32,000 nt of DNA from Cupriavidus necator. GTDB lineage: Bacteria > Pseudomonadota > Gammaproteobacteria > Burkholderiales > Burkholderiaceae. A model generated the notes under the pieces. It was not told the origin of the DNA. It worked only from the letters and a program-made list of their open reading frames with translations, and ran no database searches. Shown one piece after another: positions 641-22,335 of this stretch (the stretch's first letter is position 1; every line of letters starts with the position of its first letter). Location of the stretch: NCBI RefSeq assembly GCF_016127575.1, contig NZ_CP066019.1, positions 2,700,001 through 2,732,000 on the forward strand, read 5' to 3'. A program made the translations under genes and the position numbers.

Positions 641-752
641 GAAGAACTGCTCACGGCCCCGCGAACCTATTCGTTCGCGGAACGCGCAGAAGACCCGCTA
701 GCGGTCACGAAATACCCTGAAATTTAGCGAGCCAGACTTTCAGCTGCAACGG

Positions 753-2060: not shown

Positions 2061-2122
2061 AATTTTTCTCCACCATCCGCCTTCGAAGCCATCGTTGATT
2101 CCGACGGGTTCTTCGCTGTTAC

Positions 2123-2671
2123 TTACTTCTCTGCGGTGCCGCAACCGAGAATTGCATGTTCCATTTCCTGCCTGAACGCGGGAATCACCGGCCGCACCTC
2201 CTCTGGAAGCACAAACTTGTCGCAGTTCGGACCGGCGCCGATCCGGTCAACCACAACGAAGTCACAAGCTTCGGTGGGCAACAGCACGTGATGCCAAACA
2301 CCTGGGGCGTAATTGATGCCTTGCCCTGGTTTGGCGATGAAGGCGCGGACCTCGGCCGCATCCACCGAAACTCCCCGGGGAGCGACCACTACGATAAAAC
2401 TGGTCGGCTTCATGGGAATGAAGGCTTGGCTCGACAATGGGTGACGTTCGAGGAACACCACCTCCAACGGCAATACGTACGGCTTTGCGCGCATGATGCT
2501 GATGCCAGCCTTACCACCAAGAGCCAGAGCATCAACCACGGCGAGGTCATGGTAGCGCTCAACCATGCCTTCGTTGATGTGATGGAAGGCGCCCGGGGAA
2601 GCCTCAATGACCTCGCCGAACGGCGAAAAGGCCGCCTTGGTCAAGGGCTCCAATTTCAGGGTGATACGCAT
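2123..2671 (-). CDS. allA: Ureidoglycolate lyase (AllA family)
   Basis: MRITLKLEPLTKAAFSPFGEVIEA...HHINEGMVERYHDLA...LERHPLSSQAFIPM...GINYAPGVWHH matches the AllA signature over the whole length. AAAGGAGAC Shine-Dalgarno lies before the ATG at 2671. Confidence 0.85.
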   Translation of the reverse strand: MRITLKLEPLTKAAFSPFGEVIEASPGAFHHINEGMVERYHDLAVVDALALGGKAGISIMRAKPYVLPLEVVFLERHPLSSQAFIPMKPTSFIVVVAPRGVSVDAAEVRAFIAKPGQGINYAPGVWHHVLLPTEACDFVVVDRIGAGPNCDKFVLPEEVRPVIPAFRQEMEHAILGCGTAEK

Positions 2672-2712
2672 AGGTCTCCTTTTATGCTTATGACTTTGTC
2701 AGGTTCCGGCCA

Positions 2713-2729
2713 TACTGGTCTGACCAGTA
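2713..2729. promoter_or_regulatory. Operator O1: perfect 17-nt palindrome TACTGGTCTGACCAGTA (putative GntR site)
   Basis: Read directly from the sequence. It lies 3 nt downstream of the -10 of the allA-dctA promoter. The same motif recurs at 5628-5652 and 15078-15094. Confidence 0.6.
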
Positions 2730-2732
2730 ATA

Positions 2733-2761
2733 ACTGTAGACTTGCCAGAAAGCTCGGTCAA
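2733..2761 (-). promoter_or_regulatory. Sigma70-type promoter for allA-dctA (TTGACC-17-TACAGT)
   Basis: On the minus strand, TTGACC is at 2761-2756, followed by a 17-nt spacer and TACAGT at 2738-2733, upstream of the allA ATG (2671). Confidence 0.5.
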
Positions 2762-2791
2762 GTGCTATATGTGATAATTATCAGACCAGTA
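2742..2791 (+). promoter_or_regulatory. Possible gntR promoter (TTGCCA-18-TATATG) plus half-degenerate operator TAATTATcagACCAGTA (2775-2791)
   Basis: TTGCCA is at 2742-2747 and TATATG at 2766-2771. The right arm plus spacer, CAGACCAGTA, is identical to O1; the left arm matches 4 of 7. This would give autoregulation. Confidence 0.3.
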
Positions 2792-2795
2792 TGAA

Positions 2796-3593
2796 GTGTC
2801 ACCTACACAGACTATGAAAGCGACTTCCGCTGCATTGGCACCCAAGGCGCCGCTGACTGCTCCCGCGCCACCAGGGCGTCGGCCACCTATCGCATTGCGC
2901 ACGCCTGTCACGCAGCACGCCTTGGAGCGCATGCAGACATCCATCTACAGCGGCGAATGGGCGGCGGACAGCCAGATCCCCTCACAGCGTGAGTTGGCTG
3001 AGCTGCTCGGCGTAAGCCGCTCTTCCTTGCGCGAGGCAATTTCCTCGCTGGAGGGAATGGGGCTGGTGCGGGTAGAGCCCGGCAGAGGCGTGTTTGTAGC
3101 ATCGCTCGAGCAGCAGGCTGCCGTCGGCAGAAACTCTGAAGTTCATCAGATCGACCATACACCGAGTGAACTTTATGAGGCACGCCTGTTGATGGAAGGT
3201 TGGGCCGCCGCCCTCGCATCCATCCATATCACCGATGACGACATCGCCGCCCTACGAAAACTGCTGGGGGAGATGGAAATCACGGTAAAGGACCACGATG
3301 TCACACGGCTGAACCAGCTGGATTTCGAGTTTCACTCGCTGATAGCTTCTTGCTGCGGCAATCGCCTGATTCGTGCACTACTTGCTCCGATTTTCTCGGA
3401 GGAAGAAATGAGCGCCCCGCGCCTTTCCGACACGGCATTCCTGAGCAGCCGCGTCAAAGAGCACAAGGAAATCGTGGAAGCCTTGGCAACGCGCAACCCT
3501 GGCCTCGCTCAAATGGCCATGCGTAACCATGTCCTGCGCAGCGCAAAGCGTGTCCAGGTAGAGCTGCCTGAGCACGTACATCAGCTGCCTTGA
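2796..3593 (+). CDS. GntR-family transcriptional regulator, FadR/FCD subfamily
   Basis: The N-terminal winged HTH reads IPSQRELAELLGVSRSSLREAISSLEGMGLVRVEPGRGVFV. The C-terminal FCD-type motif is LDFEFHSLIASCCGNRLI. The start may be GTG 2796 or ATG 2814; no clear SD precedes either. Confidence 0.85.
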   Translation: MSPTQTMKATSAALAPKAPLTAPAPPGRRPPIALRTPVTQHALERMQTSIYSGEWAADSQIPSQRELAELLGVSRSSLREAISSLEGMGLVRVEPGRGVFVASLEQQAAVGRNSEVHQIDHTPSELYEARLLMEGWAAALASIHITDDDIAALRKLLGEMEITVKDHDVTRLNQLDFEFHSLIASCCGNRLIRALLAPIFSEEEMSAPRLSDTAFLSSRVKEHKEIVEALATRNPGLAQMAMRNHVLRSAKRVQVELPEHVHQLP

Positions 3594-3609
3594 TGCACCA
3601 CAACTGCAT

Positions 3610-3640
3610 GCCGTTGGCGGGACCGTCGCCTGCCAACGGC
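3610..3640. terminator. Hairpin between the convergent gntR and allE-like genes
   Basis: GCCGTTGGC (3610-3618) pairs with GCCAACGGC (3632-3640) in a 9-bp GC-rich stem. There is no U-tract, as is common in high-GC Burkholderiales. Confidence 0.4.
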
Positions 3641-3651
3641 CGCAGCATGCG

Positions 3652-4425
3652 TCAGAAGGTGAAATCGCGATTCACGTTCTTGTAGAGCAGGTATGTCGCC
3701 TTGGACCAACCGGTGGCATAGAAGAACTGCGGACAGAACGGTGCCATGTAGATGAAGTCCTCCGCCCAGCACTCGTGCCAGTCATTTTGCAGTAGGTACA
3801 TCCCCTGCCCTTCCAGCATATAGAGCCCATGTTCCATGACATGCGTTTCCACCATGGGAAAGTAATTGCCAGGCTCGAAGCTCAGGATGTTGATGGCAAA
3901 GTCGAACGCCGGATTTTCATCGGGCAACAGATGCTGCCAGGTTCGGCCCTTGGTGTGCTTGTTCACCTTCTCGACATTTTGCTCGTGTGAAACCAGGGCT
4001 GCCGGGGCTTCCACGCCTTCGAGGCGTTCATAAGGTTTCTTGATCCATACGACGCGCGCTTCGTCGGCGCCCGGGTTGTACACACGTACGCCAGTTCCCG
4101 CGGGCGCGTATGCGAAGCCCCCTGCCTTGAGCTCGTGTGTCTTGCCCTCCAGTTCGAGCGACACATTGCCTGAAACAACGTAAAAGAAGGCCTGCATACC
4201 GTCGTTTCGCAGGGTCGTCATTCCGCCGCCACCCTGGATCTGCAGCAGCAGCTGGGCAAACTTCGCGCCCAGACCTGGCGTAGCTTGAACGCTGATGGTG
4301 GTCTTCTCAATCCCCGGAATACGGCTTTCCAGAATGCCCTCAGGAGGCATCACCGCATAGTGAGTCGTTACGGCCGCACGATGATGAGCGAACACACCGG
4401 GGGGCTGAATTTGCCGCTTCGTCAT
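3652..4425 (-). CDS. Bicupin, (S)-ureidoglycine aminohydrolase family (AllE/YlbA-like)
   Basis: Colinear with E. coli AllE/YlbA: IPG...ATPGLGAKF...FFYVVSGN...GGFAYAP...ILSFEPG...ETHVMEHGLYMLEGQGMY...DFIYM...YKNVNRD. I chose the ATG at 4425 (AAGGAG 8 nt upstream) over the ORF-track start at 4467. Confidence 0.75.
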   Translation of the reverse strand: MTKRQIQPPGVFAHHRAAVTTHYAVMPPEGILESRIPGIEKTTISVQATPGLGAKFAQLLLQIQGGGGMTTLRNDGMQAFFYVVSGNVSLELEGKTHELKAGGFAYAPAGTGVRVYNPGADEARVVWIKKPYERLEGVEAPAALVSHEQNVEKVNKHTKGRTWQHLLPDENPAFDFAINILSFEPGNYFPMVETHVMEHGLYMLEGQGMYLLQNDWHECWAEDFIYMAPFCPQFFYATGWSKATYLLYKNVNRDFTF

Positions 4426-4453
4426 TTTTTTGAACTCCTTGGGTAGGTGAGGG

Positions 4454-4474
4454 AAGCACCATGGCATGGTGCTT
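4454..4474 (-). other. Intercistronic hairpin between the porin and allE-like genes
   Basis: AAGCACCAT-GGC-ATGGTGCTT forms a 9-bp stem. It starts 5 nt after the porin stop and ends 29 nt before the allE-like ATG. No U-tract follows it. Confidence 0.4.
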
Positions 4475-4478
4475 GAGG

Positions 4479-5606
4479 TTAGAAGCGATGGCGCAATCCG
4501 ACAGAAGCGCCGAATGGGTCGGCGCCAGCGGCCGCTCCGGTGCGGCCGTTGGAAAAGTCATACTTGGCCGCCGCCTGATTGAGAATCTTCGATATCGTTG
4601 TGCGAATCATTGTTCGCTTACTCAGGTTGTAGTTGTAGCCGAGCGTCCACAACTGTGCGCCGGTCTGGCTGCTCGAACCACAGTTGACTCCGTTGCCTCC
4701 CGTGTCCCCTTGGCAACGAACATCATTCGCACGCCCGTACATGGCGTAGATTTCGTGGGCTCCCCAGTCATATTCGGTAACAAAAGCCCACGCATCCCGG
4801 CGCAAGCGGCCGTCACCATTGGAGAACTGGCCATCGCTGACCGAACGGTCATACAGACCGCCGATGAGCCACCGCTCTGTCACCTGGTACTTCACGCCGA
4901 CGCGATGTTTTTGGTCGTGGCCATTGGTCTGTGCCAGGCCGGCCTTGTTCTTGTCGTGTCTGTCCTCGTACGCATAAGCGACGTAGAAGGGACCTCTTGC
5001 ATAGGCAAGCCCGGCACCAATGACGTGGTCGTTGCGGCCGGTCCCGTCGGCGCGGACCTCTCCAAATCCATACTGCGCGCCTACCTCGATCCCATAGAAG
5101 GACGCCGAACGGTAGCGCACCGAGTTTTGCAACCGTGAATCGTGGTCGGTCGAAATGCCGTTCATGCTCGAAACCAACGACTGCAACGCCCCGATGCCCG
5201 TATTTGCGCCTGGCGTAAGATCAAGGGCGTTGCCCAGTGCGCGCACGCTGGTAGTGTTCACACCCAGCGTGAGAGCCCCCACCGGCCGATGGCGCAGTCC
5301 TACGAACGTATCTCGATTAAAGAAGGGCGTGCTGGACGCACCAGAATCAATCGAAAAGTTGCCTTCCAGCTGGAAGAAGGCGTCCAGACCGCCGCCTAAA
5401 TCTTCTGAACCCCGGATACCCCAGTACGACCCTTGCGAACTCAGTCGGGTAGTTCCCGGCTTGTCAGCCGCCGGGCCCGCAGTCGCGCCCTTGGCGCTTA
5501 CATAGTCAATCGCAGCGTCAGCCACGCCATAGAGCGTCACGCTACCCTGCGCTGCGGCGCCGGCCGTGAGTGCCGATAGGACTCCGCCCACCAGTATACG
5601 TTTCAC
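4479..5606 (-). CDS. Outer-membrane general porin (Gram-negative trimeric porin, Burkholderiales type)
   Basis: The signal peptide is KRILVGGVLSALTAGAAAQG, followed by SVTLYGVADAAIDY. The sequence alternates in beta-strand pattern and is rich in G, Y and N, with a C-terminal ...VGLRHRF. The likely start is GTG 5606, preceded by GGGGAGAGAG. The ORF-track extension to 5687 runs through the promoter and operator. Confidence 0.85.
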   Translation of the reverse strand: MKRILVGGVLSALTAGAAAQGSVTLYGVADAAIDYVSAKGATAGPAADKPGTTRLSSQGSYWGIRGSEDLGGGLDAFFQLEGNFSIDSGASSTPFFNRDTFVGLRHRPVGALTLGVNTTSVRALGNALDLTPGANTGIGALQSLVSSMNGISTDHDSRLQNSVRYRSASFYGIEVGAQYGFGEVRADGTGRNDHVIGAGLAYARGPFYVAYAYEDRHDKNKAGLAQTNGHDQKHRVGVKYQVTERWLIGGLYDRSVSDGQFSNGDGRLRRDAWAFVTEYDWGAHEIYAMYGRANDVRCQGDTGGNGVNCGSSSQTGAQLWTLGYNYNLSKRTMIRTTISKILNQAAAKYDFSNGRTGAAAGADPFGASVGLRHRF

Positions 5607-5627
5607 ATCTCTCTCCCCGTTGTTATT

Positions 5628-5652
5628 ATCATACTGGTCATACCAGTATGAT
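5628..5652. promoter_or_regulatory. Operator O2: ATCATACTGGT-CAT-ACCAGTATGAT (11-nt inverted arms)
   Basis: Read directly from the sequence. It sits between the divergent porin (start 5606, minus) and amidase (start 5704, plus) genes and directly abuts the -10 of the porin promoter. An extra half-site ACCAGTATA is at 5590-5598. Confidence 0.6.
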
Positions 5653-5681
5653 ACGATACTCACACGTGTTGGCAGAGTCAA
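5653..5681 (-). promoter_or_regulatory. Sigma70-type promoter for porin-allE (TTGACT-17-TATCGT)
   Basis: On the minus strand, TTGACT is at 5681-5676, followed by a 17-nt spacer and TATCGT at 5658-5653. Confidence 0.45.
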
Positions 5682-5703
5682 GCACACTTTCGAGGAGAGG
5701 CTG

Positions 5704-6687
5704 ATGAACGGCTTGGGTGGGTTAAATCAGACTGAAAACGGGGTCATCGTGGGGCTGCTGCAGCTTCGGAAAGCGGATATCGCAACGGCGGAGGACCTGC
5801 GCCTCTCTGCCGAGAGGCTCGCCTCGTTTGTGCACCAGGTAAAGGCGGGGCGCCCAAATGTCGACATCATTGTCTTTCCCGAGTATTCGCTCAATGGCGC
5901 CTCGAAGGCGTTGAGCGCTGATCTCCAGTGCACTGTGGATGGACCCCATGTTGGCGTGCTTCGTGACGCGTGTCGCCTGGCAAACGTATGGGCATGCTTC
6001 TCCTTCATGGAACTCAACCCGGGCGGCAACCCGTACAACTCAGCGATTCTGGTCAACAATGAAGGCCAAGTCTGCTTGCACTACCGCAAACTTCACCCGT
6101 GGGTTCCTGCAGAGCCGTGGGCGCCGGGGAACCTTGGCATACCGGTGTGTGAAGGACCCAAGGGTTCCAAGATTGCCGTCGTCATCTGCCATGACGGGAT
6201 GTTTCCCGAGGTCGCTCGGGAGTGCGCCTACAAGGGCGCCGAGTTGATGATTCGCATCGCCGGCTACTCTTCGTCACTGCGTCATCAATGGCACCTGACC
6301 GCACAGGCCGATGCCTTTTGCAACCTGATGTACACAGCAAGCGTTTGCGGATGCTCAGCCTCTGGCCCATTTGGTGGAATGGGCGAGGCCATCGTCGTGG
6401 GTTTCGATGGAGTACCAATCCGCCACGGCAGCAACAAGGAAAATGAATTGATTACTGCCGAAATCCGACCGGACCTGGTACGCGAGGCACGCCGAACCTG
6501 GGGTGCTGAAAACAATATCTACCAGCTGGGCCACAGAGGCTTCGTGGCCGTCAGCGGCGGCGCGAACGACTGCCCGTATACGTACATGCAAGACCTGGTC
6601 GCTGGGCGGTACAGTCTGCCGTGGGAAGATGAAGTCCTCGTAAAGGATGGCACGATGGCCGGACACCCTCCCCCACGGCGAACGTGA
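5704..6687 (+). CDS. Nitrilase-superfamily amidase, formamidase/aliphatic amidase branch (AmiF/AmiE-like)
   Basis: Glu-Lys-Cys triad contexts are VFPEYSL, YRKLHPW and VVICHDGMFPE. Long blocks match H. pylori AmiF as I remember it: PWVPAEPWAPGNLGIPVCEGPKGSKIAV, ENNIYQLGHRGFVA, DLVAGRYSLPWEDEVLVKDG. ATG 5704 is preceded by GAGGAGAGG. The ORF-track start at 5566 lies inside the porin gene and promoter. Confidence 0.8.
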   Translation: MNGLGGLNQTENGVIVGLLQLRKADIATAEDLRLSAERLASFVHQVKAGRPNVDIIVFPEYSLNGASKALSADLQCTVDGPHVGVLRDACRLANVWACFSFMELNPGGNPYNSAILVNNEGQVCLHYRKLHPWVPAEPWAPGNLGIPVCEGPKGSKIAVVICHDGMFPEVARECAYKGAELMIRIAGYSSSLRHQWHLTAQADAFCNLMYTASVCGCSASGPFGGMGEAIVVGFDGVPIRHGSNKENELITAEIRPDLVREARRTWGAENNIYQLGHRGFVAVSGGANDCPYTYMQDLVAGRYSLPWEDEVLVKDGTMAGHPPPRRT

Positions 6688-6700
6688 CGACCGGTGCCCA

Positions 6701-6719
6701 CTTCGCCAGGTTGGCGAAG
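6701..6719. terminator. Hairpin between the convergent amidase and allantoicase genes
   Basis: CTTCGCCA-GGT-TGGCGAAG forms an 8-bp stem, followed by CGGGTTTCC on the plus strand. Confidence 0.35.
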
Positions 6720-6740
6720 CGGGTTTCCAAATGGCTACGG

Positions 6741-7796
6741 TCAGCGCGCAATCAGTCCAGGCGCTCCCAGGAGCCGGAGTCTTGTCACTCCGCCGTCGGG
6801 GTAGATATTCAGTCTGACATGGGTGACGAGCGTATCCCGAAGCGCCGCGCTCAGCTCGACAGCATTCTGGCATCCGCCCTTCAGGTTACTGCGCCCTACC
6901 AGTTCCGGCCAGTACATCGCCTGGTTCAGAACCACCTCGTCGGTGGCACTTTCGAGGCATGCGCCTTGCAGCGAAAAGGCGGCAGGAAAGTTGCCCGTGT
7001 AGTAGGTCGTATCGACCAGGACGCGCTCCAGCGTCCCCGGTGCCGCCAAGGCAATCACGGCCCAGTCATGCCCCGGCTTCCTCAGACGCCTGGTTTCCCA
7101 GCCCTTGCCCCATTCCACTGAGGGACCTGGCGCAATCATGGCCCGTACCGCGCCGAAGTGCGTATCACTGCAACCTACAATGCGGGCACCGTTTTCCAGT
7201 GCCGCCAGATCGCACTGGCCAGCCGGACCGAGCGCCTCCGGCAGTTGGACCAGCCCAAAGACACGAAAGCGAGCCATCCCGCCGTCCGGAAAAATGTTCA
7301 GCCGGACATGTGTGAAGACCCCTCTTGCGTCGACTGAAACCAGTCGTTGGCTGTCCCCGGCAAGCTCGGTCGCGGGCACGAGCGCGGTCCATTCGACATC
7401 GGCGATATCGTCATCCGCCGAAATGGCGCAGGCTTGCACTGACGCGGCCAAAGGATAGTTGCCGGTGTAGAAGCTGGTGTCGAATCCTATCGCGGTGATC
7501 TGGCCTGGCCGGCCAAGCTTGATAACACACCATTCGTTGCCAGCCTTGCGTCGACGAGACGTCTCCCATCCATCTACCCAGCGCATCCCTTCGTCATCGT
7601 GATAGTAGTAGTTCGCCGCTTTCGGGTTGAGCATGCGCGATGCCGGCGCATACCACTCGTCGGACGCCGCTACGACTGTCGCGCCCAGACGCTCATCCGC
7701 CAGATCCACGTACGCCCGTTCACTGCGAAGGAACGCTTCCGAAGGTTCCGAACGCTGCCGAATCATGGTCCTGTCATTACTTCCGCCTGCCATCAT
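6741..7796 (-). CDS. alc: Allantoicase (allantoate amidinohydrolase), two-repeat architecture
   Basis: There are two internal repeats, each carrying the allantoicase signature: DGWETSRRRK...CVIKLG...FDTSFYTGNYP...VRLNIFPDGGMARFRVFG, then KGWETRRLRK...AVIALA...VDTTYYTGNFP...VRLNIYPDGGVTRLRLLG. The start is ATG 7796/7793, behind AGGGAGG. Confidence 0.85.
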   Translation of the reverse strand: MMAGGSNDRTMIRQRSEPSEAFLRSERAYVDLADERLGATVVAASDEWYAPASRMLNPKAANYYYHDDEGMRWVDGWETSRRRKAGNEWCVIKLGRPGQITAIGFDTSFYTGNYPLAASVQACAISADDDIADVEWTALVPATELAGDSQRLVSVDARGVFTHVRLNIFPDGGMARFRVFGLVQLPEALGPAGQCDLAALENGARIVGCSDTHFGAVRAMIAPGPSVEWGKGWETRRLRKPGHDWAVIALAAPGTLERVLVDTTYYTGNFPAAFSLQGACLESATDEVVLNQAMYWPELVGRSNLKGGCQNAVELSAALRDTLVTHVRLNIYPDGGVTRLRLLGAPGLIAR

Positions 7797-7881
7797 CTGC
7801 CTCCCTAAATTGTCCGCAATGCAGACTGATTGAATCCGCCGCACCCCAGCCAGAGCTGACATGCGGCGATACCTGACGGCG

Positions 7882-8307
7882 TTAGCTCCAAGGCCTGGAA
7901 CAGCGCCGATATGAAATGGAAAGGCCTCCCCGCTCATGAATGAGTGCGCCGAGATCGGCGAGCCGCTCTTGCCCTGTCGTCACCGTAAGCACGTGGTGGC
8001 CAGACAGTTCGCCGCTGGGGCAGGCAAAGCGCGTAGGCCCGTAAGGAATCAAGAGTTCTCCGCCTACATCGTCATTCCCTCCATAGAGCAGAATCTGGCC
8101 CACGGCTGGCCGCGATATGCCTCCATTGCCGATATGCTTTGCGGTTCCTCCCAGGCGAGCGAAAACCGCATGGCCGCTCCAGCGCCCTTGCAGGAACTCC
8201 CATTGAGCCGGCAACCTCTCCATCAACCAGTCACATGCTGCCGGCGAGAGGTCTTGCTCAAGTCTTGCCAGAAAGGAATAGGGACCCGCCTTCATCTCGA
8301 TATCCAT
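7882..8307 (-). CDS. Small conserved hypothetical protein, possibly DUF3830 / cyclophilin-like fold
   Basis: 141 aa with GGAGAA 5 nt before ATG 8307. The motif ...LPAQWEFLQGRWSGHAVFARLG... and the overall length recall the DUF3830 family. The family call is from memory and weak; the coding call rests on operon context and the SD. Confidence 0.5.
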   Translation of the reverse strand: MDIEMKAGPYSFLARLEQDLSPAACDWLMERLPAQWEFLQGRWSGHAVFARLGGTAKHIGNGGISRPAVGQILLYGGNDDVGGELLIPYGPTRFACPSGELSGHHVLTVTTGQERLADLGALIHERGGLSISYRRCSRPWS

Positions 8308-8370
8308 AATTTCTCCGATTCGCATATAGGCAATGCAGGGGCCTGGCCAAGCCAAGGCCATTGAACAACA

Positions 8371-9573
8371 TCAACCGCGGAAACGCATGGCGGTTCCGAT
8401 GGCACACGCGAACACGATGGATAGGCACGCAGCGATGGCTATCATGGCGTTCGCCAGGCCCATCAGCCCTGCCACATATCCAACGAGCAAGCCACCCACG
8501 GCAGCGCCGGCGCGAAACGTCATGACGTGGAGCGCGACTACCCTACCCTTATGCGTCTCAACGGCTTGCATTTGAGCGAATGCACTTGAGCAGATGTTCA
8601 CAGCGGCCTGACCGAGCGCAAAAATCCCGATGGCGAAATAACCGCCTAGTTCCGAGGACGATAGCGAAAGCATTGCGGTGCCTGAGGCGAGAAAGACAAG
8701 CGAAATCACCTGGACCTTCAGCAGCGTCCGAATGTGACTGACAAGCGAAAGCAAGAGGCCAGCCGCAATAGCAAGGACTCCAAACAATGCATTGATATTG
8801 CCGAGCACCCTTGCATCCTGTCGCAGGATGCTGTCGACGATTGCCGGCAGCATGTCGATAACGGGGCGACCCAGCATCGCATACGCAAGGTAGACCAGGA
8901 AGACCAGGCGCATGGATCGGTCGTCAAGGACTGCGGTGAATGCACCCTTCAGCGTTACGAGGAAGGATTCCCGCCTGGGCGGCCGTACTGGCTTGGTCTC
9001 ACCGTCATTTCCGGAGAGAACTCGCACAAACATGGCATCTGCCAGTGCGGTGACGCCACTCAACGCGAACGCAAAAAACGAGAGATTGTTCGTTATCAAG
9101 TACGCCGCCCCAAGCGGGCCGACAGAACGTGCGATATTCATCGAGACAGAGTTCACCGACACAGCACTGGCGATTTCGGTCTTCTCGACCAGCTTGGTGA
9201 GCAATACCTGGCGGGCCGGCTGCGAAAAGCTTCCGCATATCCCGACGAGTAGCGCACACGCAAGCAACGCGAAAATCGTCAGGTTTCCGGTGACGGCAAG
9301 CGCCGCCAGGACTAAGGACGTCAGACCACAGGTCGCATCAGCGATGCGGACGACTTGCCTGACCTTGCCTCGGTCGACCAGTATCCCCGCGAGCGGGGAT
9401 ACGACGAAGGATGGTGCAAACTGGACGAAGATCAGAATGCCGAGCAGCAGTTCAGAATGAGTTTGCTCCCATGCGTACCATCCCACGACCACCTGCTGAA
9501 CCCATGTCCCAATCTGGGCCGAGGTATGAATCAGGTAATAGGCAGCAACCCGCGGCTGGCGAAGAACTCTCAT
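8371..9573 (-). CDS. MFS transporter (EntS / MFS_3 'transmembrane secretion effector'-like)
   Basis: About 12 predicted hydrophobic helices. The N-terminus reads AYYLIHTSAQIGTWVQQVVVGWYAW...SPLAGILVDRG, typical of that MFS subfamily. Its ATG (9573-9571) overlaps the TGA of the upstream ABC ATPase (an ATGA overlap). Confidence 0.8.
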   Translation of the reverse strand: MRVLRQPRVAAYYLIHTSAQIGTWVQQVVVGWYAWEQTHSELLLGILIFVQFAPSFVVSPLAGILVDRGKVRQVVRIADATCGLTSLVLAALAVTGNLTIFALLACALLVGICGSFSQPARQVLLTKLVEKTEIASAVSVNSVSMNIARSVGPLGAAYLITNNLSFFAFALSGVTALADAMFVRVLSGNDGETKPVRPPRRESFLVTLKGAFTAVLDDRSMRLVFLVYLAYAMLGRPVIDMLPAIVDSILRQDARVLGNINALFGVLAIAAGLLLSLVSHIRTLLKVQVISLVFLASGTAMLSLSSSELGGYFAIGIFALGQAAVNICSSAFAQMQAVETHKGRVVALHVMTFRAGAAVGGLLVGYVAGLMGLANAMIAIAACLSIVFACAIGTAMRFRG

Positions 9574-11624
9574 GCTCGCAAAGTCATGGACTCCACACCC
9601 ATGTCATTGCGAGAATAAGTATCCTGCATCAAAGATGAATCGGCCTCGACCAGCGAGTTCGCGTAATGGCACCGGACAGCACGCCCGTCCCCATACTCGC
9701 TCAACGCCGGCCGTTCATTGCACACGTCCGACCGATACGGGCACCGCGGGGAGAAGCAGCAGCCTTCCGGCCTTTGCATTGGGTTCGCAACGCCCGCCAG
9801 GATTCGATTCGCTTCATCCTGTTCCCGCCGCACCAAGGTCGGCGTACTTGCGAGCAGCGCTTTGGTATAGGGATGGGCCGGATTTCCCAGAACCTGCTCG
9901 GCAGGTCCATATTCGACGACTTCACCCAGATACATCACGGCAATCTCATCTGCCATATGACCCACCACAGCGAGGTCATGGCTGATAAACACCAGCGTCA
10001 GCTGAAACTCCTTCCGAAGTTGCAGCAGAAGGTTCAGGATCTGAGCTTGAACCGAGACATCCAGCGCCGACGTCGGCTCGTCGCAGACAATCAATGCCGG
10101 GTTGGTTGCAAGGGCACGTGCAATTGCAACGCGTTGGCGCTGCCCACCGGAGAGCTGCCCGGGTGAAGCGTGGTGAAGCCGGGTTGGCAGACCGACCTTC
10201 CCGAGCAAGCTGGTCACGTGCGCGTCACGTTGTGCCGCGGGCATGGCCGCAGACAGGTCAAGCGGCCGCCGTACAATCTCGCTCACACTGCGACTCGGAT
10301 TGAGCGATGAGTAGGGATCCTGAAATACGGTCTGCACAAGGGCTGCCCGCTGCGCGGGCTCATACGCTCCAATGGGACGTTCATCGAGCAGCACTTCTCC
10401 TGAAACTGGCTGCTCCAACCCGAGAAGCATCCGAGCAAGCGTGGACTTCCCGCATCCCGACTCACCCACGATGGCCAGTGTCCGGCCCTTCTGAAGACGC
10501 AAGGACACGTCAACCACAGCCTTGAGCGAGAGCCGTGGCTTGAACAGGCCGCCGCGGACCTGGTACGTCATGGAGATGTCCTTTGCTTCCAGCAGTACAT
10601 CTCCCGCCGGCCTCCGCAACATAGCCATAGGTGTCTCGACTTCCTCCGGCTGCGGGGCGCTGGCAAGGTGACATGCACCAGAGTGCTTCTTGTCGTAGGC
10701 ACGAAGCTTCGGCGCTTCGAGACCGCATCTGGCGAATGCGTACTTGCACCGACGCTCGAAGACGCAGCTGGCTGGCTGGGAATAGAAAGACTGGACGGTG
10801 CCCGGTAGTGTAGGAAGCAGAGTGCCGGCCTCATGCTTCCCAAGGTCCGGGATCGACCGTAGCAGGCCCTGCGTATAGGGATGCCGCGATGCGGCGAAGA
10901 GTGTGCTCGTCGGTGCGGCTTCTACGATTTCTCCGGCGTACATGACGGCAACGTTGTCGGCGACTGATGCTACGGCCCCCAAATTGTGGGAGATCAGCAG
11001 CAATCCCATGCCGAGCTCTCGACGCAGGTCATCCAACAAGTCCAGGATCTGCTTTTGGACCGTGACATCCAGGGCCGTAGTGGGCTCGTCGGCGATGAGC
11101 AGCTGCGGGCGATTCATGAGCGCCATGGCAATCATGATGCGCTGGCGTTGCCCACCGGAGAACTCATGCGGGAACGATGTCATACGCTTGGCCGGCGAGG
11201 CAATACCCACCCGCTCCAGCAGCTCAATCGCGCGTCTGCGGGCATGGTCGCCGGCCACCGCCTGGTGGCGCCGCATTGTCTCCGTCAACTGCCTGCCGAT
11301 GCTGTAGACGGGGTTCAAGGCCGTCATTGGCTCCTGGAAGATGTATCCAACCTGAGTCCCTCGCACGGTGCTCGCCAGGTCGCGCTCAGACATGCTGGTC
11401 AGGTCCAGGCCATTTACGCGCAGCGTGTCAGCCGAGCACTGTGCGCGCCGTGGCAGCAATCGTGGAATCGAAAGCGCAGTTAGCGACTTGCCGGAACCTG
11501 ACTCACCGACTACTCCGAGGCACTCTCCCTTGTCGATTTTGAGGCTGACGTTACGGACAGCATGCAATGTGCGCCTGTTCTCCAGCGGCAGCTTGATGCT
11601 GAGATTCTCTACTTCAAGAAGCAT
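9570..11624 (-). CDS. ABC transporter ATP-binding protein, fused double ATPase (DppD-DppF / GsiA-like)
   Basis: It carries two complete ATP-binding cassettes. Walker A motifs are GESGSGKS and GESGCGKS. Signature motifs are FSGGQRQR and LSGGQRQR. Walker B motifs are LLIADEPT and LIVCDEPT. Both halves end in the Cys-rich Opp/Dpp C-terminal segment. The true start is ATG 11624, 5 nt after the permease stop. The 848-aa ORF-track version runs into the permease gene. Confidence 0.9.
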   Translation of the reverse strand: MLLEVENLSIKLPLENRRTLHAVRNVSLKIDKGECLGVVGESGSGKSLTALSIPRLLPRRAQCSADTLRVNGLDLTSMSERDLASTVRGTQVGYIFQEPMTALNPVYSIGRQLTETMRRHQAVAGDHARRRAIELLERVGIASPAKRMTSFPHEFSGGQRQRIMIAMALMNRPQLLIADEPTTALDVTVQKQILDLLDDLRRELGMGLLLISHNLGAVASVADNVAVMYAGEIVEAAPTSTLFAASRHPYTQGLLRSIPDLGKHEAGTLLPTLPGTVQSFYSQPASCVFERRCKYAFARCGLEAPKLRAYDKKHSGACHLASAPQPEEVETPMAMLRRPAGDVLLEAKDISMTYQVRGGLFKPRLSLKAVVDVSLRLQKGRTLAIVGESGCGKSTLARMLLGLEQPVSGEVLLDERPIGAYEPAQRAALVQTVFQDPYSSLNPSRSVSEIVRRPLDLSAAMPAAQRDAHVTSLLGKVGLPTRLHHASPGQLSGGQRQRVAIARALATNPALIVCDEPTSALDVSVQAQILNLLLQLRKEFQLTLVFISHDLAVVGHMADEIAVMYLGEVVEYGPAEQVLGNPAHPYTKALLASTPTLVRREQDEANRILAGVANPMQRPEGCCFSPRCPYRSDVCNERPALSEYGDGRAVRCHYANSLVEADSSLMQDTYSRNDMGVESMTLRA

Positions 11625-11629
11625 GGCGT

Positions 11630-12532
11630 TCAATCCCGAGTCTGTGGCTGGATGACATCGCGCAACCCATCGCCGAGCAGGTTCACGCCTATCACGAGAA
11701 GAAAGAGAGATGCGCCGGGCAGCAAGACAATCCATGGATTGAGGAACATCACCGCCTTGCCTTCCGAGATCATCAACCCCCAGGACGGGATGGGCGAAGG
11801 CACTCCGACGCCAAGGAACGACAGCGACGCTTCTGCCAGGATAGAAACCGCCACTTCCGCAGTGAATACGACCAATAGCGACCCAGCCAGGTTGGGCAGG
11901 ATGTCCCAGACGATGATTTGGCGAGCACTGGCGCCAGCCAATTTCGATGCCTTGACATAGTCCAGTTCTCGAATCCGCTGCGTTGCGCTGCGCGTCACGA
12001 CCAGATAGAGCGTCCAGTGCATCAGCCCGATAACGCAGACGACGGTCGTGAGCGACGGCTGAATGAAATAGATCAGAGTCATCGCCAGGAGCAAGCTCGG
12101 AAGCGCAAGCTTGCACGTAAGGCCGAACATGACAGCGTGGTCAACCAGGCGCCCGAAGTATCCGGCGATCGAACCCAACGTTATTCCGATGACGGCGCCG
12201 ATAGACGCGGCGCAGAAGCCAATGGTGAGCGATACTCGCGCGCCCTCGAGCAGGCGCGCAAGAACGTCTCTACCCAGCTGGTCCGTGCCGAGCGGATGCT
12301 GGAGTGCGCCCCTGGCATCCCAAGCCGGCGGGCGCAGTCGCATCATCAGATCCTGCGCGTATGGGTCTGTCGTCCAAATCAGCGGCCCGAAAAGCGCAAC
12401 CATGATGTAGGCAAGTACCACCCCACCACCAATGCGCACGCTTCGGTTGCGAAGGATTCGTTTTGGCAGACTGTCGCGCCTTTCAGCATTCGATGAGGCG
12501 CTTACTTCCGTAGTCAGAGCAATATCGGTCAT
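11630..12532 (-). CDS. ABC transporter permease (DppC/OppC-like)
   Basis: The N-terminal TM helix is followed by ...DPYAQDLMMRLRPPAW... and an EAA-type loop, ASKLAGASARQIIVWDILPN. ATG 12532 lies 1 nt after the stop of the upstream permease. Confidence 0.9.
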   Translation of the reverse strand: MTDIALTTEVSASSNAERRDSLPKRILRNRSVRIGGGVVLAYIMVALFGPLIWTTDPYAQDLMMRLRPPAWDARGALQHPLGTDQLGRDVLARLLEGARVSLTIGFCAASIGAVIGITLGSIAGYFGRLVDHAVMFGLTCKLALPSLLLAMTLIYFIQPSLTTVVCVIGLMHWTLYLVVTRSATQRIRELDYVKASKLAGASARQIIVWDILPNLAGSLLVVFTAEVAVSILAEASLSFLGVGVPSPIPSWGLMISEGKAVMFLNPWIVLLPGASLFLLVIGVNLLGDGLRDVIQPQTRD

Positions 12533-12533
12533 C

Positions 12534-13451
12534 TCATGCAAGCCTAATTCGTGGGTCAAGCCAGGCGTTGAGGACGTCTGACACAAAAGTCATCAGCACA
12601 AACATCACCGCGAAGACAAGCACCAGCATCTGTAAGGTAGGGATGTCACCGGTAAGCACTGAATTCAGTGCCAACCGGCCCAATCCATTCATGGCAAAGA
12701 CGACCTCGGTAACGACCGATCCTCCCAGCTTGTTCCCCAGTTCGATGGCGAGCACGCTCACCACCGGAAGAATCGCGTTACGCAAGGCGTGGCGACGCAG
12801 AAGGCTCCAGCCGAAGAACCCTTTTGCCCGGGCGGTCCGGATAAAGTCCGCCGAAAGTACTTCCATCAGCCCCGACCTGGTCAGCCGCATGACATTCGGG
12901 ACCGCACCTTTGCCGAGAATCACCGCCGGCATAATGTAGCTCTGCCACGAGTCGTCTCCGGACACCGGAAGCAAGCCGAGGTGAACGGCGAAAAACAGGA
13001 TGAACAACAGTCCTACCCAGAAATTCGGGGCGGCCTGTATGGCGGCTGCGACTGAGAGCGCGGTGCGGTCTATCCAGCTGCCTGGCCGCAGTGCGGCAGC
13101 GACACCAAGTGGCAGGCCGATCAGGATGGTGACCAGCATCCCGCTCAGCGCCAGTCGGATGGTGACCGGTGCATGCTCGAGGATAATTTCCATGACTGGC
13201 TGCTTCATGACATAGCTGACGCCCAGGTCACCTTTTAACAGCCCGCCCACCCATGTCACGTACCGCTCTGAAGCGGGCCTGTCCAACCCGAGGTCTGCGC
13301 GGACTTGCGCGATTACGGCCGGGTCATCGGTATCGCCAACGATAGCCGCGGCCGGGTCGACGGCAAAGTTGAGCAGCGCAAAGGTGACAATCGACGCCGT
13401 CAAGGCGACGGCGATTGCCAACAGGATCTTCTGCGTAACGAATCTAAGCAC
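12534..13451 (-). CDS. ABC transporter permease (DppB/OppB-like)
   Basis: MLRFVTQKILLAIAV... and DFIRTARAKGF...LRRHALRNAILPV are typical DppB family motifs. The start is GTG at 13451. Confidence 0.9.
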   Translation of the reverse strand: MLRFVTQKILLAIAVALTASIVTFALLNFAVDPAAAIVGDTDDPAVIAQVRADLGLDRPASERYVTWVGGLLKGDLGVSYVMKQPVMEIILEHAPVTIRLALSGMLVTILIGLPLGVAAALRPGSWIDRTALSVAAAIQAAPNFWVGLLFILFFAVHLGLLPVSGDDSWQSYIMPAVILGKGAVPNVMRLTRSGLMEVLSADFIRTARAKGFFGWSLLRRHALRNAILPVVSVLAIELGNKLGGSVVTEVVFAMNGLGRLALNSVLTGDIPTLQMLVLVFAVMFVLMTFVSDVLNAWLDPRIRLA

Positions 13452-13472
13452 GATGTCGTTTCCCTAGTTCGT

Positions 13473-15032
13473 TCACTTCTTTGCCTTCCACGTGGCTAGA
13501 TACAGCCGTGGCATGCCGTCAGCAGCCTGCGGAAAATTCAGATCCGGCGCCAGGACGAAGTTCTGGGTGAATTCAAACAGAGGTACCCAGTAGGCTTGGT
13601 CAAGAATGCGACTCACCGCCTCCCGCCCGAGCTCCTTACGTGCTGGGATGTCGGTTGTGGACAGGAACTGTTCGAGACTCAAATACAGTCGCTGGTCGTG
13701 ATGGAAGTCACTGGGCGAGCCCTTGCCGAACAGATTGGGCAAGAGCGCGCCAGCATCCGCGACGCCCAGGGAGCCGTTGTTCTCGAAATATGCTGAGATC
13801 TGGTTTTCATCGCGCGCCTTGAGCACAGCGGGCGATTTGGCGACGCGCAGATTGGCGTTGATTCCGGCCTTTCGCCACATCGCGACGACAGCTTCCAGCG
13901 TTTCCTTTTCACGCGATGCCCACAGATCAAACTGAAGTCCGTTCGGATAACCCGCCTCAGTAAGAAGTTGCTTCGCCTTTGCGATGTTGTAGTTGTACTT
14001 GGTGACGTCCTGGGCGCAGCCGAACTGTATCGGCAAGCAGGGGGTATAGGCAGGAGCCGAACGTCCGCGAATGAGCTGCCTTGTCAGAGCCTCCCGGTCC
14101 ACCGCGTAGTTGAGGGCCTGACGTACCTTCAGCTTGGTAAAAGGATTGTCCTTGCCGGTGCGCCCGGCCGCGTCCAGCACGATGAAGCCGATGCGCATGG
14201 ACGGCGACGCCACAAAGACTGCTTGCTTGGTACTTCCAACCTCATCGGCAATGTCCGTTGGAATGTTGTATGTCCAATGAACGCCGCCGGAAAGAACCTC
14301 CGCTACCTGAGTTGCGTAGTCTGGAATCACCTTGATGCGAATGCGCGGGATTTCTGGCGTGCCTTTCGGGGATTCCTTGCGATAGCCGGCAAACTTTTCC
14401 AGCACGACTTCTCGTCCGGGCAGGAACGAGGTGACTTTATAGGGGCCAGTCCCCACCATTTTTCGCGACTGCGCCTCGACATCCAGGCCGCTGGGCGTCC
14501 CCGCTTTGTCGTACGTTCCGCTCTTGACAACCCGACCTGTCGTTGCCAGAAAATGCAGCGCCAGAGGATTCGCGCCCTTCATTCTGAACACCACGGTACC
14601 AGGCGCTTCCCCCTTCTCTACTTTCGCCAGCCATCGCTTGAACTGATCCCCCTTCTTGGCAGTGCTTTTGGGATTGATGATGGACTGGAATGTATAGATG
14701 ACGTCGTCGGCTGTCACTTTGCTGCCGTCATGGAACTGGATGTCCTCACGCAGGGTGACTTCAAGAACGGTCGGTTCGAGATATCGGTAGCTCTTTGCCA
14801 GCAAGGGCGTCGGCTGCTGCGTCGCCGGGTCGATGTAGAAGAGAGAATCGTCAATCAGGAGACTGAGGATTTCGTTCTCGCGAGAGGTGGAGTTGAAATT
14901 GTCCAATACCAATATTTCTCTCGCGACCGCTGCGACAAGCGTGCCGTCTGCGGGCTTGGCGTCCGCGGCAATCGGTGAGAAACATCCCCATAGGATGGAG
15001 AGGCCTGCCAAGCTGCTGCGAACTCGTTTCAT
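13473..15032 (-). CDS. ABC transporter substrate-binding protein, family 5 (peptide/nickel/opine type)
   Basis: Signal peptide MKRVRSSLAGLSILWGCFSPIAADA. About 520 aa with the family-5 pattern ...YRYLEPTVLEVTLREDIQFHDGSKVTADDV... It is the first gene of the ABC operon. Confidence 0.9.
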   Translation of the reverse strand: MKRVRSSLAGLSILWGCFSPIAADAKPADGTLVAAVAREILVLDNFNSTSRENEILSLLIDDSLFYIDPATQQPTPLLAKSYRYLEPTVLEVTLREDIQFHDGSKVTADDVIYTFQSIINPKSTAKKGDQFKRWLAKVEKGEAPGTVVFRMKGANPLALHFLATTGRVVKSGTYDKAGTPSGLDVEAQSRKMVGTGPYKVTSFLPGREVVLEKFAGYRKESPKGTPEIPRIRIKVIPDYATQVAEVLSGGVHWTYNIPTDIADEVGSTKQAVFVASPSMRIGFIVLDAAGRTGKDNPFTKLKVRQALNYAVDREALTRQLIRGRSAPAYTPCLPIQFGCAQDVTKYNYNIAKAKQLLTEAGYPNGLQFDLWASREKETLEAVVAMWRKAGINANLRVAKSPAVLKARDENQISAYFENNGSLGVADAGALLPNLFGKGSPSDFHHDQRLYLSLEQFLSTTDIPARKELGREAVSRILDQAYWVPLFEFTQNFVLAPDLNFPQAADGMPRLYLATWKAKK

Positions 15033-15077
15033 GCTCTGTAATCCCCCTGAACATACGATTTTTTGCCGTTCTGGTCA

Positions 15078-15094
15078 TACTGGTATGACCAGTG
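15078..15094. promoter_or_regulatory. Operator O3: TACTGGTatgACCAGTg, embedded in the palindrome CTGGTCATAC-TG-GTATGACCAG (15071-15092)
   Basis: Read directly from the sequence. It lies 7 nt downstream of the -10 of the ABC-operon promoter and 46 nt upstream of the SBP start codon. Confidence 0.6.
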
Positions 15095-15101
15095 TCGAGA
15101 C

Positions 15102-15131
15102 ACTATAGTCGGGGGGTTGAGCTACTGTCAA
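15102..15131 (-). promoter_or_regulatory. Near-consensus sigma70 promoter for the ABC/MFS/DUF3830/alc operon (TTGACA-18-TATAGT)
   Basis: On the minus strand, TTGACA is at 15131-15126, followed by an 18-nt spacer and TATAGT at 15107-15102. Confidence 0.55.
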
Positions 15132-15225
15132 AAGAGGGTTTTCCCGCAGTGGCAGCGCCCGATTGCCAACTCGCTGGCGTGTGCCGCCTATACTCCGCAT
15201 GCCACCTTTCATCCGGAGCCAAACC

Positions 15226-15915
15226 ATGGATTACACCCCGGGCATCAGCCACCTCGCCGCCCTGCTCGCCGATCCCGGCCGCGCGGCCATGCTGTGGGCG
15301 CTGATGGACGGCAGCGCCCGGCCCGCCGGCGAGCTGGCGCTGATCGCCGGGCTGTCGGCCTCCTCCACCAGCGGCCACCTGGCCCGCTTGACCGAAGGCG
15401 GGCTGCTGGTGGCCGAGACGCGCGGGCGCAACCGCTACTACCGCCTGGCCGCGCCGGAGATCGGCGTGGCGATCGAGGCGCTGGCGTCGGCGTCGCTGGC
15501 CAGCCAGCCGCCGCGGCTGCGCGACGTGCCGGCATCGCGCACCGCGCCACCGGCGCTGCGCCAGGCGCGCACCTGCTATGACCACCTGGCGGGCGAGCTG
15601 GCCGTGGGCCTGTTCGAGCGGATGACGCATTCGGGCTGGCTGATGCTGGACGGACAGCGCGTAGACCTGAGCGGCGACGGCGCGCAGGCGCTGGCGGGGC
15701 TGGGTGTCGACGTGGAGGCGGCGCGGCGCAAGCGGCGCCAGTTTGCCTGCACCTGCCCGGACTGGAGCGAGCGCAAGCCGCACCTGGGCGGCGCGCTTGG
15801 CGCGGCGCTGTTGGGCAGCCTGCTGTCGCGCGGCTGGGTCGAGCCTACGCGCACCTCGCGCGCGTTGCGCGTGACACCGGCGGGCCAACGCGAGATCATT
15901 CGCATCGCGGCCTAG
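15226..15915 (+). CDS. ArsR/SmtB-like winged-helix regulator with a C-terminal Cys/His-containing extension
   Basis: The N-terminal wHTH reads LLADPGRAAMLWALMDGSARPAGELALIAGLSASSTSGHLARLTEGGLLVAETRGRNRYYRL. The C-terminal half carries RTCYDHLAGELAVGL and FACTCPDWSERKPHLGG, motifs I recall from a widespread ~230-aa ArsR-like family. ATG 15226 is preceded by GGAG. Confidence 0.75.
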   Translation: MDYTPGISHLAALLADPGRAAMLWALMDGSARPAGELALIAGLSASSTSGHLARLTEGGLLVAETRGRNRYYRLAAPEIGVAIEALASASLASQPPRLRDVPASRTAPPALRQARTCYDHLAGELAVGLFERMTHSGWLMLDGQRVDLSGDGAQALAGLGVDVEAARRKRRQFACTCPDWSERKPHLGGALGAALLGSLLSRGWVEPTRTSRALRVTPAGQREIIRIAA

Positions 15916-15946
15916 GAGACCGCAGCAAGCAACAGGAGAAAACAAG

Positions 15947-16453
15947 ATGGCCACACCCCTGGACGACGACACGCAGGACGCGATTGCGCGTTTCTTCGCC
16001 CTGATCAACCTTGGCGACAGCGCGCAGACCTCGGCGCAGCTGTCGATGTTTGAAGATGCCCTGCTCGATGCCGAGGACGATGACACCGATGGCCAGGAAC
16101 TGCTGTGGGTGATCCGTGAGGTCATCGACTGGCAGTCCGGGTTCTTTGTCGACTGGAAGGATGCCCAGTCCTTTATCGGCTGCCTGAACCAGTTGTGCGA
16201 ACGGATCGACCTGGAGATCGACTGGGGCAGCGACGACCCCGAGGAAGAAGCCTTCCTGGAGACCACCAGCGTGCCGGAACTGATGGAGCTGGCGCACAAC
16301 CAATTGCGCGTGGCCGGCTATACGCTGTGGAACTGGGATACCGGCGGCGACGCCTACGGCGGCTGGATCACGCGCAGCGAGGACGACGAGGAGATGCTGG
16401 ATCTTGCCGAAGTGCTGCACTTTGACGTGCGGCCGGCCGAGCAGCCTTATTGA
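15947..16453 (+). CDS. Hyper-acidic, Trp-rich hypothetical protein (168 aa)
   Basis: AGGAGA lies 8 nt before the ATG, and the gene starts 31 nt after the ArsR-like gene, so co-transcription is likely. I count 41 Asp+Glu against 7 Lys+Arg, and 7 Trp including repeated (I/V)DW motifs. I recognise no catalytic motif. Confidence 0.65.
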   Translation: MATPLDDDTQDAIARFFALINLGDSAQTSAQLSMFEDALLDAEDDDTDGQELLWVIREVIDWQSGFFVDWKDAQSFIGCLNQLCERIDLEIDWGSDDPEEEAFLETTSVPELMELAHNQLRVAGYTLWNWDTGGDAYGGWITRSEDDEEMLDLAEVLHFDVRPAEQPY

Positions 16454-16482
16454 CCGATGCCCGCAAGCGGAGGCCGCGGCAG

Positions 16483-17415: not shown

Positions 17416-17449
17416 GCGGCGCCTCGTCATTGCGGTGCGCCGCGATTGT

Positions 17450-17477
17450 CCCACAGCGCGAACCATGGCGCTGTGGG
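17450..17477 (-). terminator. Hairpin between the ADH and LysR genes
   Basis: CCCACAGCGC (17450-17459) pairs with GCGCTGTGGG (17468-17477) in a 10-bp stem around an 8-nt loop. It lies 10 nt after the ADH stop. There is no U-tract. Confidence 0.4.
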
Positions 17478-17486
17478 CGGCGGCCC

Positions 17487-18572: not shown

Positions 18573-18660
18573 GAAGCTCCTTTGCGGCAGGCAACGAAGC
18601 GGAAAACCATACGCCCAAACCCGGGTTCAGGAAAGGCGCGGTGCAGCACCGCAGCCAGGC

Positions 18661-22277: not shown

Positions 22278-22335
22278 GCGCCATTCCCGCGCGCTTCACA
22301 ACCAGCAGTACACAAGAGCAAGAAAGCACAAGCAC

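Follow-up and report, generated by a model that had tools for sequence, protein, structure and literature searches.

A locally autoregulated FadR-type regulon predicted for a ureide-catabolism island of Cupriavidus necator

Introduction

PdhR, LldR and GlcC are repressors of the FadR subfamily that couple an N-terminal GntR-type winged helix-turn-helix (wHTH) domain to an all-helical C-terminal FCD effector domain, recognize TGGT-N3-ACCA operators with an A/T-rich centre, a geometry also seen with FadR, and control a local catabolic cluster together with their own gene. Operators of this subfamily consist of TKGT and ACMA boxes with 3 nucleotides (nt) between GT and AC (PMC4494728). Here we examine a stretch of 32,000 nt from Cupriavidus necator (assembly GCF_016127575.1, contig NZ_CP066019.1, positions 2,700,001 to 2,732,000; hereafter the window), which carries a block of ureide-catabolism and transport genes at about 750-15130 and, within it, a regulator gene at 2814-3593. 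Domain composition, operator boxes, 3-nt spacer and predicted local control with autoregulation all resemble those of PdhR, LldR and GlcC. The regulator nonetheless differs from them in its low sequence identity, in the flanking bases TAC...GTA of its predicted operators, in an N-terminal extension of about 38 amino acids and in its putative targets, which here are genes for ureide catabolism and transport.

In function, the regulator most resembles UgmR (PA1520) of Pseudomonas aeruginosa, a comparison that rests on described function and not on sequence or motif. UgmR is described as a GntR-family repressor that binds upstream of the allantoin cluster PA1513-PA1518 and of gcl, from which it is released by the pathway metabolite uric acid (PMC12694930, citing Xu et al. 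2022). The two gene sets overlap in allantoicase, ureidoglycolate lyase and the ylbA-type cupin. The C. necator island adds a Dpp-type ATP-binding cassette (ABC) system, a major facilitator superfamily (MFS) transporter, a porin, DctA, DUF3830 and a formamidase, and is without the urate-to-allantoin genes. No Pseudomonas-named protein is found among 67 homologues of the regulator (E<=1e-20), and the text of a high-throughput SELEX (HT-SELEX; systematic evolution of ligands by exponential enrichment) atlas does not mention PA1520.

Ureide and purine catabolism are also controlled by the local repressors AllR of Escherichia coli (IclR family) and HpxS of Klebsiella (GntR), both released by pathway intermediates. 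AllR belongs to a different protein family than the regulator described here. HpxS is listed among FadR-type regulators (PMC4494728), but HpxS-type motifs have a GT-AC spacing of 2 nt, whereas that of the island is 3 nt. E. coli NanR assembles cooperatively on three repeats that lie close together, by means of a 32-residue N-terminal extension (PMC8012715). Like NanR, the regulator is an FCD protein with an N-terminal extension and three half-sites per operator, a parallel that is suggestive only: the island operator is a palindrome with one extra arm, whereas that of NanR consists of three direct GGTATA repeats, and the two extensions have no clear sequence similarity. None of the regulons in the supplements of Suvorova 2015 concerns allantoin, ureidoglycolate or formamidase, and we found no description of this regulator's orthologous group or of its motif in the literature searched.

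Results

Operator sites in the window and in orthologous loci

Sites of one palindromic motif occur non-randomly in the gene block, are conserved together with the regulator and hold a fixed place beside promoter hexamers, as the following computational comparisons establish. The original prediction listed three full copies of the palindrome, here named O1, O2 and O3, and a half-degenerate fourth in front of the regulator gene, and all four were recovered by reading the sequence and by a pattern search of the window with TACTGGTNNNACCAGTA (TACTGGT-N3-ACCAGTA) at up to three mismatches (Table 1). O3 is overlapped by a 22-nt palindrome, CTGGTCATAC-TG-GTATGACCAG, at 15071-15092. The pattern search gave eight matches against 0.29 expected, a number reached in none of 100 dinucleotide-preserving shuffles. 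The matches at 5330, 19571 and 27053 are intragenic, lying in the porin, PLD-like and TonB-receptor genes, respectively; those at 19571-19587 and 27053-27069, each with two mismatches and within genes unrelated to the island, were absent from the earlier list. Regulon membership was read within the 32-kb window, and members elsewhere in the genome are possible.

We compared nine independent orthologous loci from Cupriavidus, Bordetella, Rubrivivax and metagenomes, in which the regulator is 48-89% identical to that of the window. They comprise a Cupriavidus metagenome-assembled genome (L001, 89%), Bordetella genomosp. 10 (L005, 69%), Rubrivivax (L007, 55%) and six metagenomic loci (L008, 76%; L003, 74%; L009, 57%; L010, 55%; L012, 53%; L011, 48%). 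Gene content is shuffled among them, with recurring families that include allA, the cupin, allantoicase, ABC systems with a family-5 solute-binding protein (SBP5), SBP3, MFS, DUF3830, porin, CN-hydrolase and DctA. That the motif should be conserved in front of orthologous genes had been proposed as a test of the regulon, and in all nine loci it is intergenic and lies directly before allA, regulator, cupin, porin/CN-hydrolase, SBP and DUF3830 genes, with scores of 16-29 bits.

The window was scored with a weight matrix trained only on sites outside it; L011 and L012 were used in no matrix. The foreign-trained matrix ranks O1, O2 and O3 first in the window, at 28.7, 28.7 and 24.3 bits; across 200 shuffles the maximum score averaged 8.9 bits and never exceeded 18.6. 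Sites in the held-out loci L011 and L012 scored 26.9, 21.0, 25.2 and 26.0 bits. Over about 172 kb of window and orthologous loci, 27 matches reach 14 bits, and 26 of them fall between genes, ahead of regulon members, which agrees with the earlier expectation that the motif is not found at similar density inside genes. The sole intragenic match at this threshold is 19571-19587 in the window, at 17.4 bits; the two other intragenic pattern matches score at most 7.7 bits. This site, GACTGGTCGTTCCAGTA, lies in the PLD-like gene (18661-20331, minus strand) and could be a chance match or an internal site. Of three control loci (61 kb), two had no match, and the third had one, before its own FCD paralogue.

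In L013, an FCD paralogue 33% identical to the regulator has its own site, GACCGGTATGACCAGAC, just upstream of its gene (9912-9928, 18.3 bits). The TGGT-N3-ACCA core is therefore common to paralogues, which leaves the flanking bases to determine specificity.

Individual sites also keep their positions. O1 is found at the corresponding place in L001, L003, L008, L010 and L011, and three loci, L001, L009 and L012, have O2 ahead of their porin gene. O3 was compared with L005 and L007, the L001 flank ending inside the SBP gene. When the spacer between allA and the regulator gene is aligned between the window and L001, the islands of conservation amid diverged flanks are the -35 and -10 hexamers, the operator and the ACCAGTA half-site.

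Placement of operators relative to promoters

A consensus promoter scan returned the same hexamers that had been proposed for three minus-strand promoters just upstream of the operators (Table 1). The -10 is separated from O1 by 3 nt, from O2 by 4 nt (0 nt when the 25-nt palindrome is counted) and from O3 by 7 nt, within the 0-7 nt first given. The allA-dctA -35 and -10 hexamers are kept in L008 and L009 as well, and those of the porin-cupin promoter are identical in L001 and L009. The repeated arrangement of promoter followed by operator, noted originally from the window, proved to be conserved across the orthologous loci: when 18 sites are oriented to their downstream genes, TTGAC(N)-17/18-TAnnnT precedes at least 12 of them, with 2-14 nt between the -10 and the operator. 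Predicted starts are therefore level with the beginning of the operator or slightly ahead of it; in the window they are placed near 2726, 5646 and 15095 on the minus strand and near 5636 and 2785 on the plus strand.

O2 had been described as shared with a divergent amidase gene, which we identify as a formamidase gene. A candidate promoter facing that gene ends 2 nt ahead of the operator at 5632-5648; with promoters on both sides, O2 is therefore placed at the start of two predicted divergent transcripts. The window and L001, its closest relative, differ by an insertion or deletion of the formamidase gene (window 5660-6764; L001 12843-12977). L001, without this gene, keeps the operator and the porin promoter, and the candidate formamidase -10 has decayed there from TATTAT to TGTTGT. 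In L009 (4587-4777) the divergon of porin and CN-hydrolase genes is retained with the operator between them.

The regulator gene has an operator of a different build. Its weak arm, TAATTAT (2775-2781), overlaps the gene's extended -10 and is followed by a perfect ACCAGTA (2785-2791) and an extra arm, TGAAG (2792-2796). Together with TCAnACCAGTATGAAC, the TGnGATAAT element is found across L001, L003, L005, L008 and L009; its sequence is kept in the window, L003, L008 and L009, and the -10 reads TATAAT in L005. In each case the 3' half of the -10 doubles as the weak left operator arm (TAATTGT or TAATTAT), with the perfect ACCAGTA next to it, and this fusion explains why the half-degenerate copy is still conserved. 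A site at the gene's own -10 implies, as a prediction from sequence, negative autoregulation.

The two operators in the spacer between allA and the regulator gene are 61-64 bp apart, centre to centre, in four loci (Table 1), or about six helical turns. Such spacing might allow in-phase interaction or looping between them.

The regulator protein

Pfam identifies the product of 2814-3593 as a GntR wHTH and FCD protein, with PF00392 at residues 40-101 of the 265-amino-acid form (1.8e-17, 63.2 bits, cut-off 27) and PF07729 at residues 125-246 (3.3e-28, 99.1 bits, cut-off 24.3). No other GntR and FCD protein is encoded in the block, so the identification of this gene as its sole FCD-type regulator stands. 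The start at 2796 assigned to it does not: GTG 2796 is an in-frame alternative, and ATG 2814, as in the orthologues, is the most likely start. Its relatives in the PDB include 2di3 (LldR, E 6e-17) and 9jpj (PdhR, 9.7e-15). The top NCBIfam model is NanR NF003011, whose score of 105.2 bits against a cut-off of 260 does not place the protein as NanR, and none of the NCBIfam equivalogs fits, all scores being far under their cut-offs. The regulator is rare. Among 5.8 billion proteins only about 17 are at least 48% identical to it, all from Burkholderiales-type sources, and the closest, at 94%, is from Cupriavidus taiwanensis.

In the FCD domain, D170, H174, H217 and H239 are invariant in 18 homologues and align with the D-x3-H, H, H positions of the PDB FCD proteins 6az6, 7xp0, 2di3 and 6on4. 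In FCD structures these positions bind metal. A metal-assisted, carboxylate-type ligand is therefore likely, as far as conserved residues can predict it. At the other end of the protein, orthologues of at least 48% identity have in common a Pro/Ala-rich N-terminal tail of 20-60 residues, which ends in R-x(2-4)-(V/I)A-x-R-T-P-V-T-Q and corresponds to residues 1-38 in the window (2814-2930). The tail is absent from FCD paralogues at 30-40% identity.

Operator consensus and a third half-site

Column counts over the 18 sites give the consensus (T/A)ACTGGT-(C/A)(A)(T/G)-ACC(A/G)GTA. It fits the FadR-subfamily palindrome of TKGT and ACMA boxes with about 3 nt between GT and AC, and the original assignment of TGGT-Nx-ACCA to the FadR/FCD operator shape agrees with this published rule (PMC4494728). 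In addition to the two palindromic arms, the aligned sites contain a third half-site, (T)GA(C)C(A), which begins 3 nt past the gene-proximal arm; the operators have three half-sites at 9-nt spacing. The longer palindrome noted originally around O3 had given a first hint of it. Its columns hold G in 15, A in 16, C in 12 to 14 and A in 12 of the 18 sites, and the mean match to ACCAG is 3.3/5 there versus 1.6/5 at the upstream mirror position. The composite formed by O3 and its third half-site also precedes the SBP5 genes of L005 and L007.

Additional half-sites, at 7-12 nt from the centre, have been reported for GntR-family operators in general, without an explanation (PMC4494728). A more elaborate proposal for the island is a three-arm composite, CTGGT-N3-ACCAGT-N3-ACCAG, whose extra arm is always gene-proximal and on which the N-terminal extension, conserved in and specific to this orthologous group, would drive NanR-like cooperative stacking of a second dimer; the two sites of the allA/regulator spacer might also loop. 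We regard this proposal as speculative and rather unlikely. If it is true, the three-arm operator would be a hybrid of palindromic FadR-type and NanR-type repeat recognition.

Discussion

We think it likely that the island's own GntR/FadR-type repressor binds these operators and occludes five promoters until an effector releases it. The comparisons point to a locally autoregulated FadR-type regulon of the textbook kind, well supported in silico; from them we infer the binding itself, the sign of regulation and the nature of the effector. In outline, the 2814-3593 protein would bind (T/A)ACTGGT-N3-ACC(A/G)GTA as a dimer, and another subunit or dimer may join it at the third half-site, (T)GACCA, on the gene-proximal side. 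At five sigma70-type promoters, those of allA-dctA, the regulator gene, porin-cupin, the formamidase gene and the operon running from the SBP to the allantoicase gene, an operator is predicted to follow the -10 directly or to overlap it. In four cases it would cover about +1 to +17 and in the fifth the -10 of the regulator gene. From these positions, it follows that a bound protein would block RNA polymerase binding or promoter escape. The original prediction had spoken of roadblock repression; with operators at about +1 to +17 or at the -10, occlusion is a somewhat better term than roadblock. The third arm would probably strengthen repression, and contacts between sites possibly would too. 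The effector is probably a small carboxylate or ureido compound from the pathway that binds in the FCD domain with its metal and frees the protein from DNA; candidates are allantoate, ureidoglycolate, glyoxylate or an upstream purine product. Release would switch on uptake and the catabolism of allantoate to glyoxylate.

Some observations weigh against this account of a single dedicated repressor. The TGGT-N3-ACCA core is common to paralogous regulators, as the 18-bit site of L013 illustrates, so cross-talk is possible; one 17-bit site, at 19571-19587, sits inside an unrelated gene; and some orthologous sites, such as those before allA in L010 and SBP3 in L007, have no clear promoter match. 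The first of these leads to an alternative in which the operators are real and bound, alone or with the local protein, by a paralogous FadR-type regulator encoded elsewhere, for example one like PdhR, LldR or GlcC. A GT-N3-AC core is indeed common to many FadR-subfamily regulators (PMC4494728), and the 33%-identical protein of L013 has its 18.3-bit match just upstream of its own gene. However, the motif including its flanking TAC and GTA co-occurs with orthologues of the regulator in nine of nine loci that differ in neighbourhood and taxon, and the regulator gene has a conserved operator of its own that merges with its -10. We consider control by a paralogue improbable.

The sites without an obvious upstream sigma70 promoter (L010 allA, L007 SBP3) would suit a regulator that is an activator or a dual regulator, in the manner of FadR at fabA, instead of a pure repressor, and some FadR-family proteins do activate certain promoters. 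Against this, the four structural-gene operators of the window lie 2-7 nt past the -10 and that of the regulator gene overlaps it, positions incompatible with class I or class II activation, and we judge an activating role very unlikely. The palindromes could also act in RNA, as 5'-terminal hairpins that serve mRNA stability or translation and not as protein sites. The predicted 5' ends do fold well, at -11 to -19 kcal/mol with z-scores of -2.0 to -4.75, but every DNA palindrome folds in this way. No compensatory arm changes are seen in the 18 sites: T>C at position 4 and A>G at position 14 occur six times, never together, and the outer positions mismatch freely. Further, the regulator's site is still conserved with one arm only, and a hairpin does not accommodate the third half-site, which is conserved too. 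We rejected an RNA hairpin as the primary function, since it folds well yet shows zero compensatory changes, and hold this the least probable of the alternatives.

The analysis yields a regulon prediction, with good computational support, for an uncharacterised Burkholderiales FadR-type regulator, with an operator consensus, five promoters and a shortlist of candidate effectors. It also gives the poorly understood genes for DUF3830, the Dpp-like ABC system, the MFS protein and the Porin_4 porin a context of ureide-nitrogen scavenging, and the operators may furnish a tight, metabolite-inducible promoter/operator cassette for Cupriavidus engineering. No concept is changed by these findings: local GntR repressors with TGGT-N3-ACCA over the start are textbook, and extra half-sites had already been described.

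Gene content of the island

Gene identities were taken from NCBIfam and Pfam, with start codons refined by reading the sequence, and all earlier gene assignments hold (Table 1). The block at about 750-15130 is GC-poor, at 0.55-0.61 compared with 0.65-0.72 to its right (15130-32000), and on that side it ends at the -35 of the promoter of the SBP operon. A similarly GC-poor block of L001 (8005-20777), which has unrelated neighbours there, matches it at 77% nucleotide identity. Low GC content and recurrence beside the unrelated neighbours of L001 suggest a transferable catabolic island, equipped with a regulator and operators of its own. The genes to the right of the block are unrelated and encode an ArsR/MarR-like HTH protein, a DUF6630 protein, a LysR regulator, a Zn-dependent alcohol dehydrogenase and a PLD-like protein, as well as an amino-acid permease, an amidohydrolase, a TonB-dependent receptor, TctC, an enoyl-CoA hydratase and a CoA-transferase.

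Table 1. Coordinates of predicted operators, promoters and genes in the window
Feature	Position	Strand	Sequence or basis
Operator O1	2713-2729	-	TACTGGTCTGACCAGTA; perfect 17-nt palindrome, 0 mismatches; over predicted start of allA-dctA promoter
Operator O2, core	5632-5648		TACTGGTCATACCAGTA; 0 mismatches; within 25-nt palindrome ATCATACTGGTCATACCAGTATGAT at 5628-5652
Operator O3, core	15078-15094	-	TACTGGTATGACCAGTG; 1 mismatch
O3 third half-site	15071-15075	-	ACCAG, gene-proximal; O3 composite 15071-15094
Degenerate operator copy before regulator gene	2775-2791		TAATTATCAGACCAGTA; 3 mismatches
Paired spacer sites	2713-2791		L001 9904-9981; L003 9891-9968; L008 5151-5231
allA-dctA promoter	2761-2733	-	TTGACC-17-TACAGT; consensus promoter scan
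Porin-cupin promoter	5681-5653	-	TTGACT-17-TATCGT; consensus promoter scan
Transport/allantoicase operon promoter	15131-15102	-	TTGACA-18-TATAGT; 11/12 matches, the region's best in promoter scan
Candidate formamidase promoter	5602-5629	+	TTCACA-16-TATTAT with upstream TG; 10/12 matches in promoter scan
Regulator promoter and putative autoregulatory operator	2770-2797	+	extended -10 TGTGATAAT at 2770-2778
DctA-type dicarboxylate symporter, second gene of allA unit	753-2060	-	NF009587, 596.5 bits; GTG 2060 behind GGTGGAG
allA, ureidoglycolate lyase	2123-2671	-	NF009932, 178.6 bits (cut-off 160); PF04115, 3.7e-57
GntR wHTH and FCD regulator (FadR subfamily), proposed repressor	2814-3593	+	Pfam; homologue comparison
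(S)-ureidoglycine aminohydrolase-type bicupin (allE-like)	3652-4425	-	TIGR03214, 317 bits (cut-off 200); ATG 4425 behind AAGGAG
Porin_4 outer-membrane porin	4479-5606	-	PF13609, 3.7e-49
Formamidase (CN-hydrolase family)	5704-6687	+	NF009803, 526.8 bits (cut-off 406)
Seven-gene operon, 8.3 kb	6741-15032	-	single strand; gaps of at most 85 nt or overlaps
Allantoicase	6741-7796	-	
DUF3830	7882-8307	-	
MFS_3 transporter	8371-9573	-	
Double ABC ATPase with oligo_HPY	9570-11624	-	
Permease	11630-12532	-	
Permease	12534-13451	-	
SBP_bac_5 binding protein	13473-15032	-	

DUF3830, a cyclophilin-like family of unknown function, is a recurrent member of the regulon and has its own operator and promoter in Rubrivivax (L007 9372-9812). 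A literature search on DUF3830 returned no matches. We consider the protein a candidate for a missing step of the pathway. As a reading independent of the three-arm operator, and one that we also hold rather unlikely, the Dpp-type ABC system, DUF3830 and the formamidase could point to a ureido compound not yet described, in place of allantoate, as the true substrate.

Finally, we note a leader open reading frame that begins at ATG 2791 and whose TGA overlaps the regulator's ATG 2814 (ATGA in the window and L001). It was rejected as a conserved upstream open reading frame: in L003 it has only three codons, and in L008 it runs out of frame into the regulator gene. ATG 2791 is part of the conserved operator extension GTATGA.

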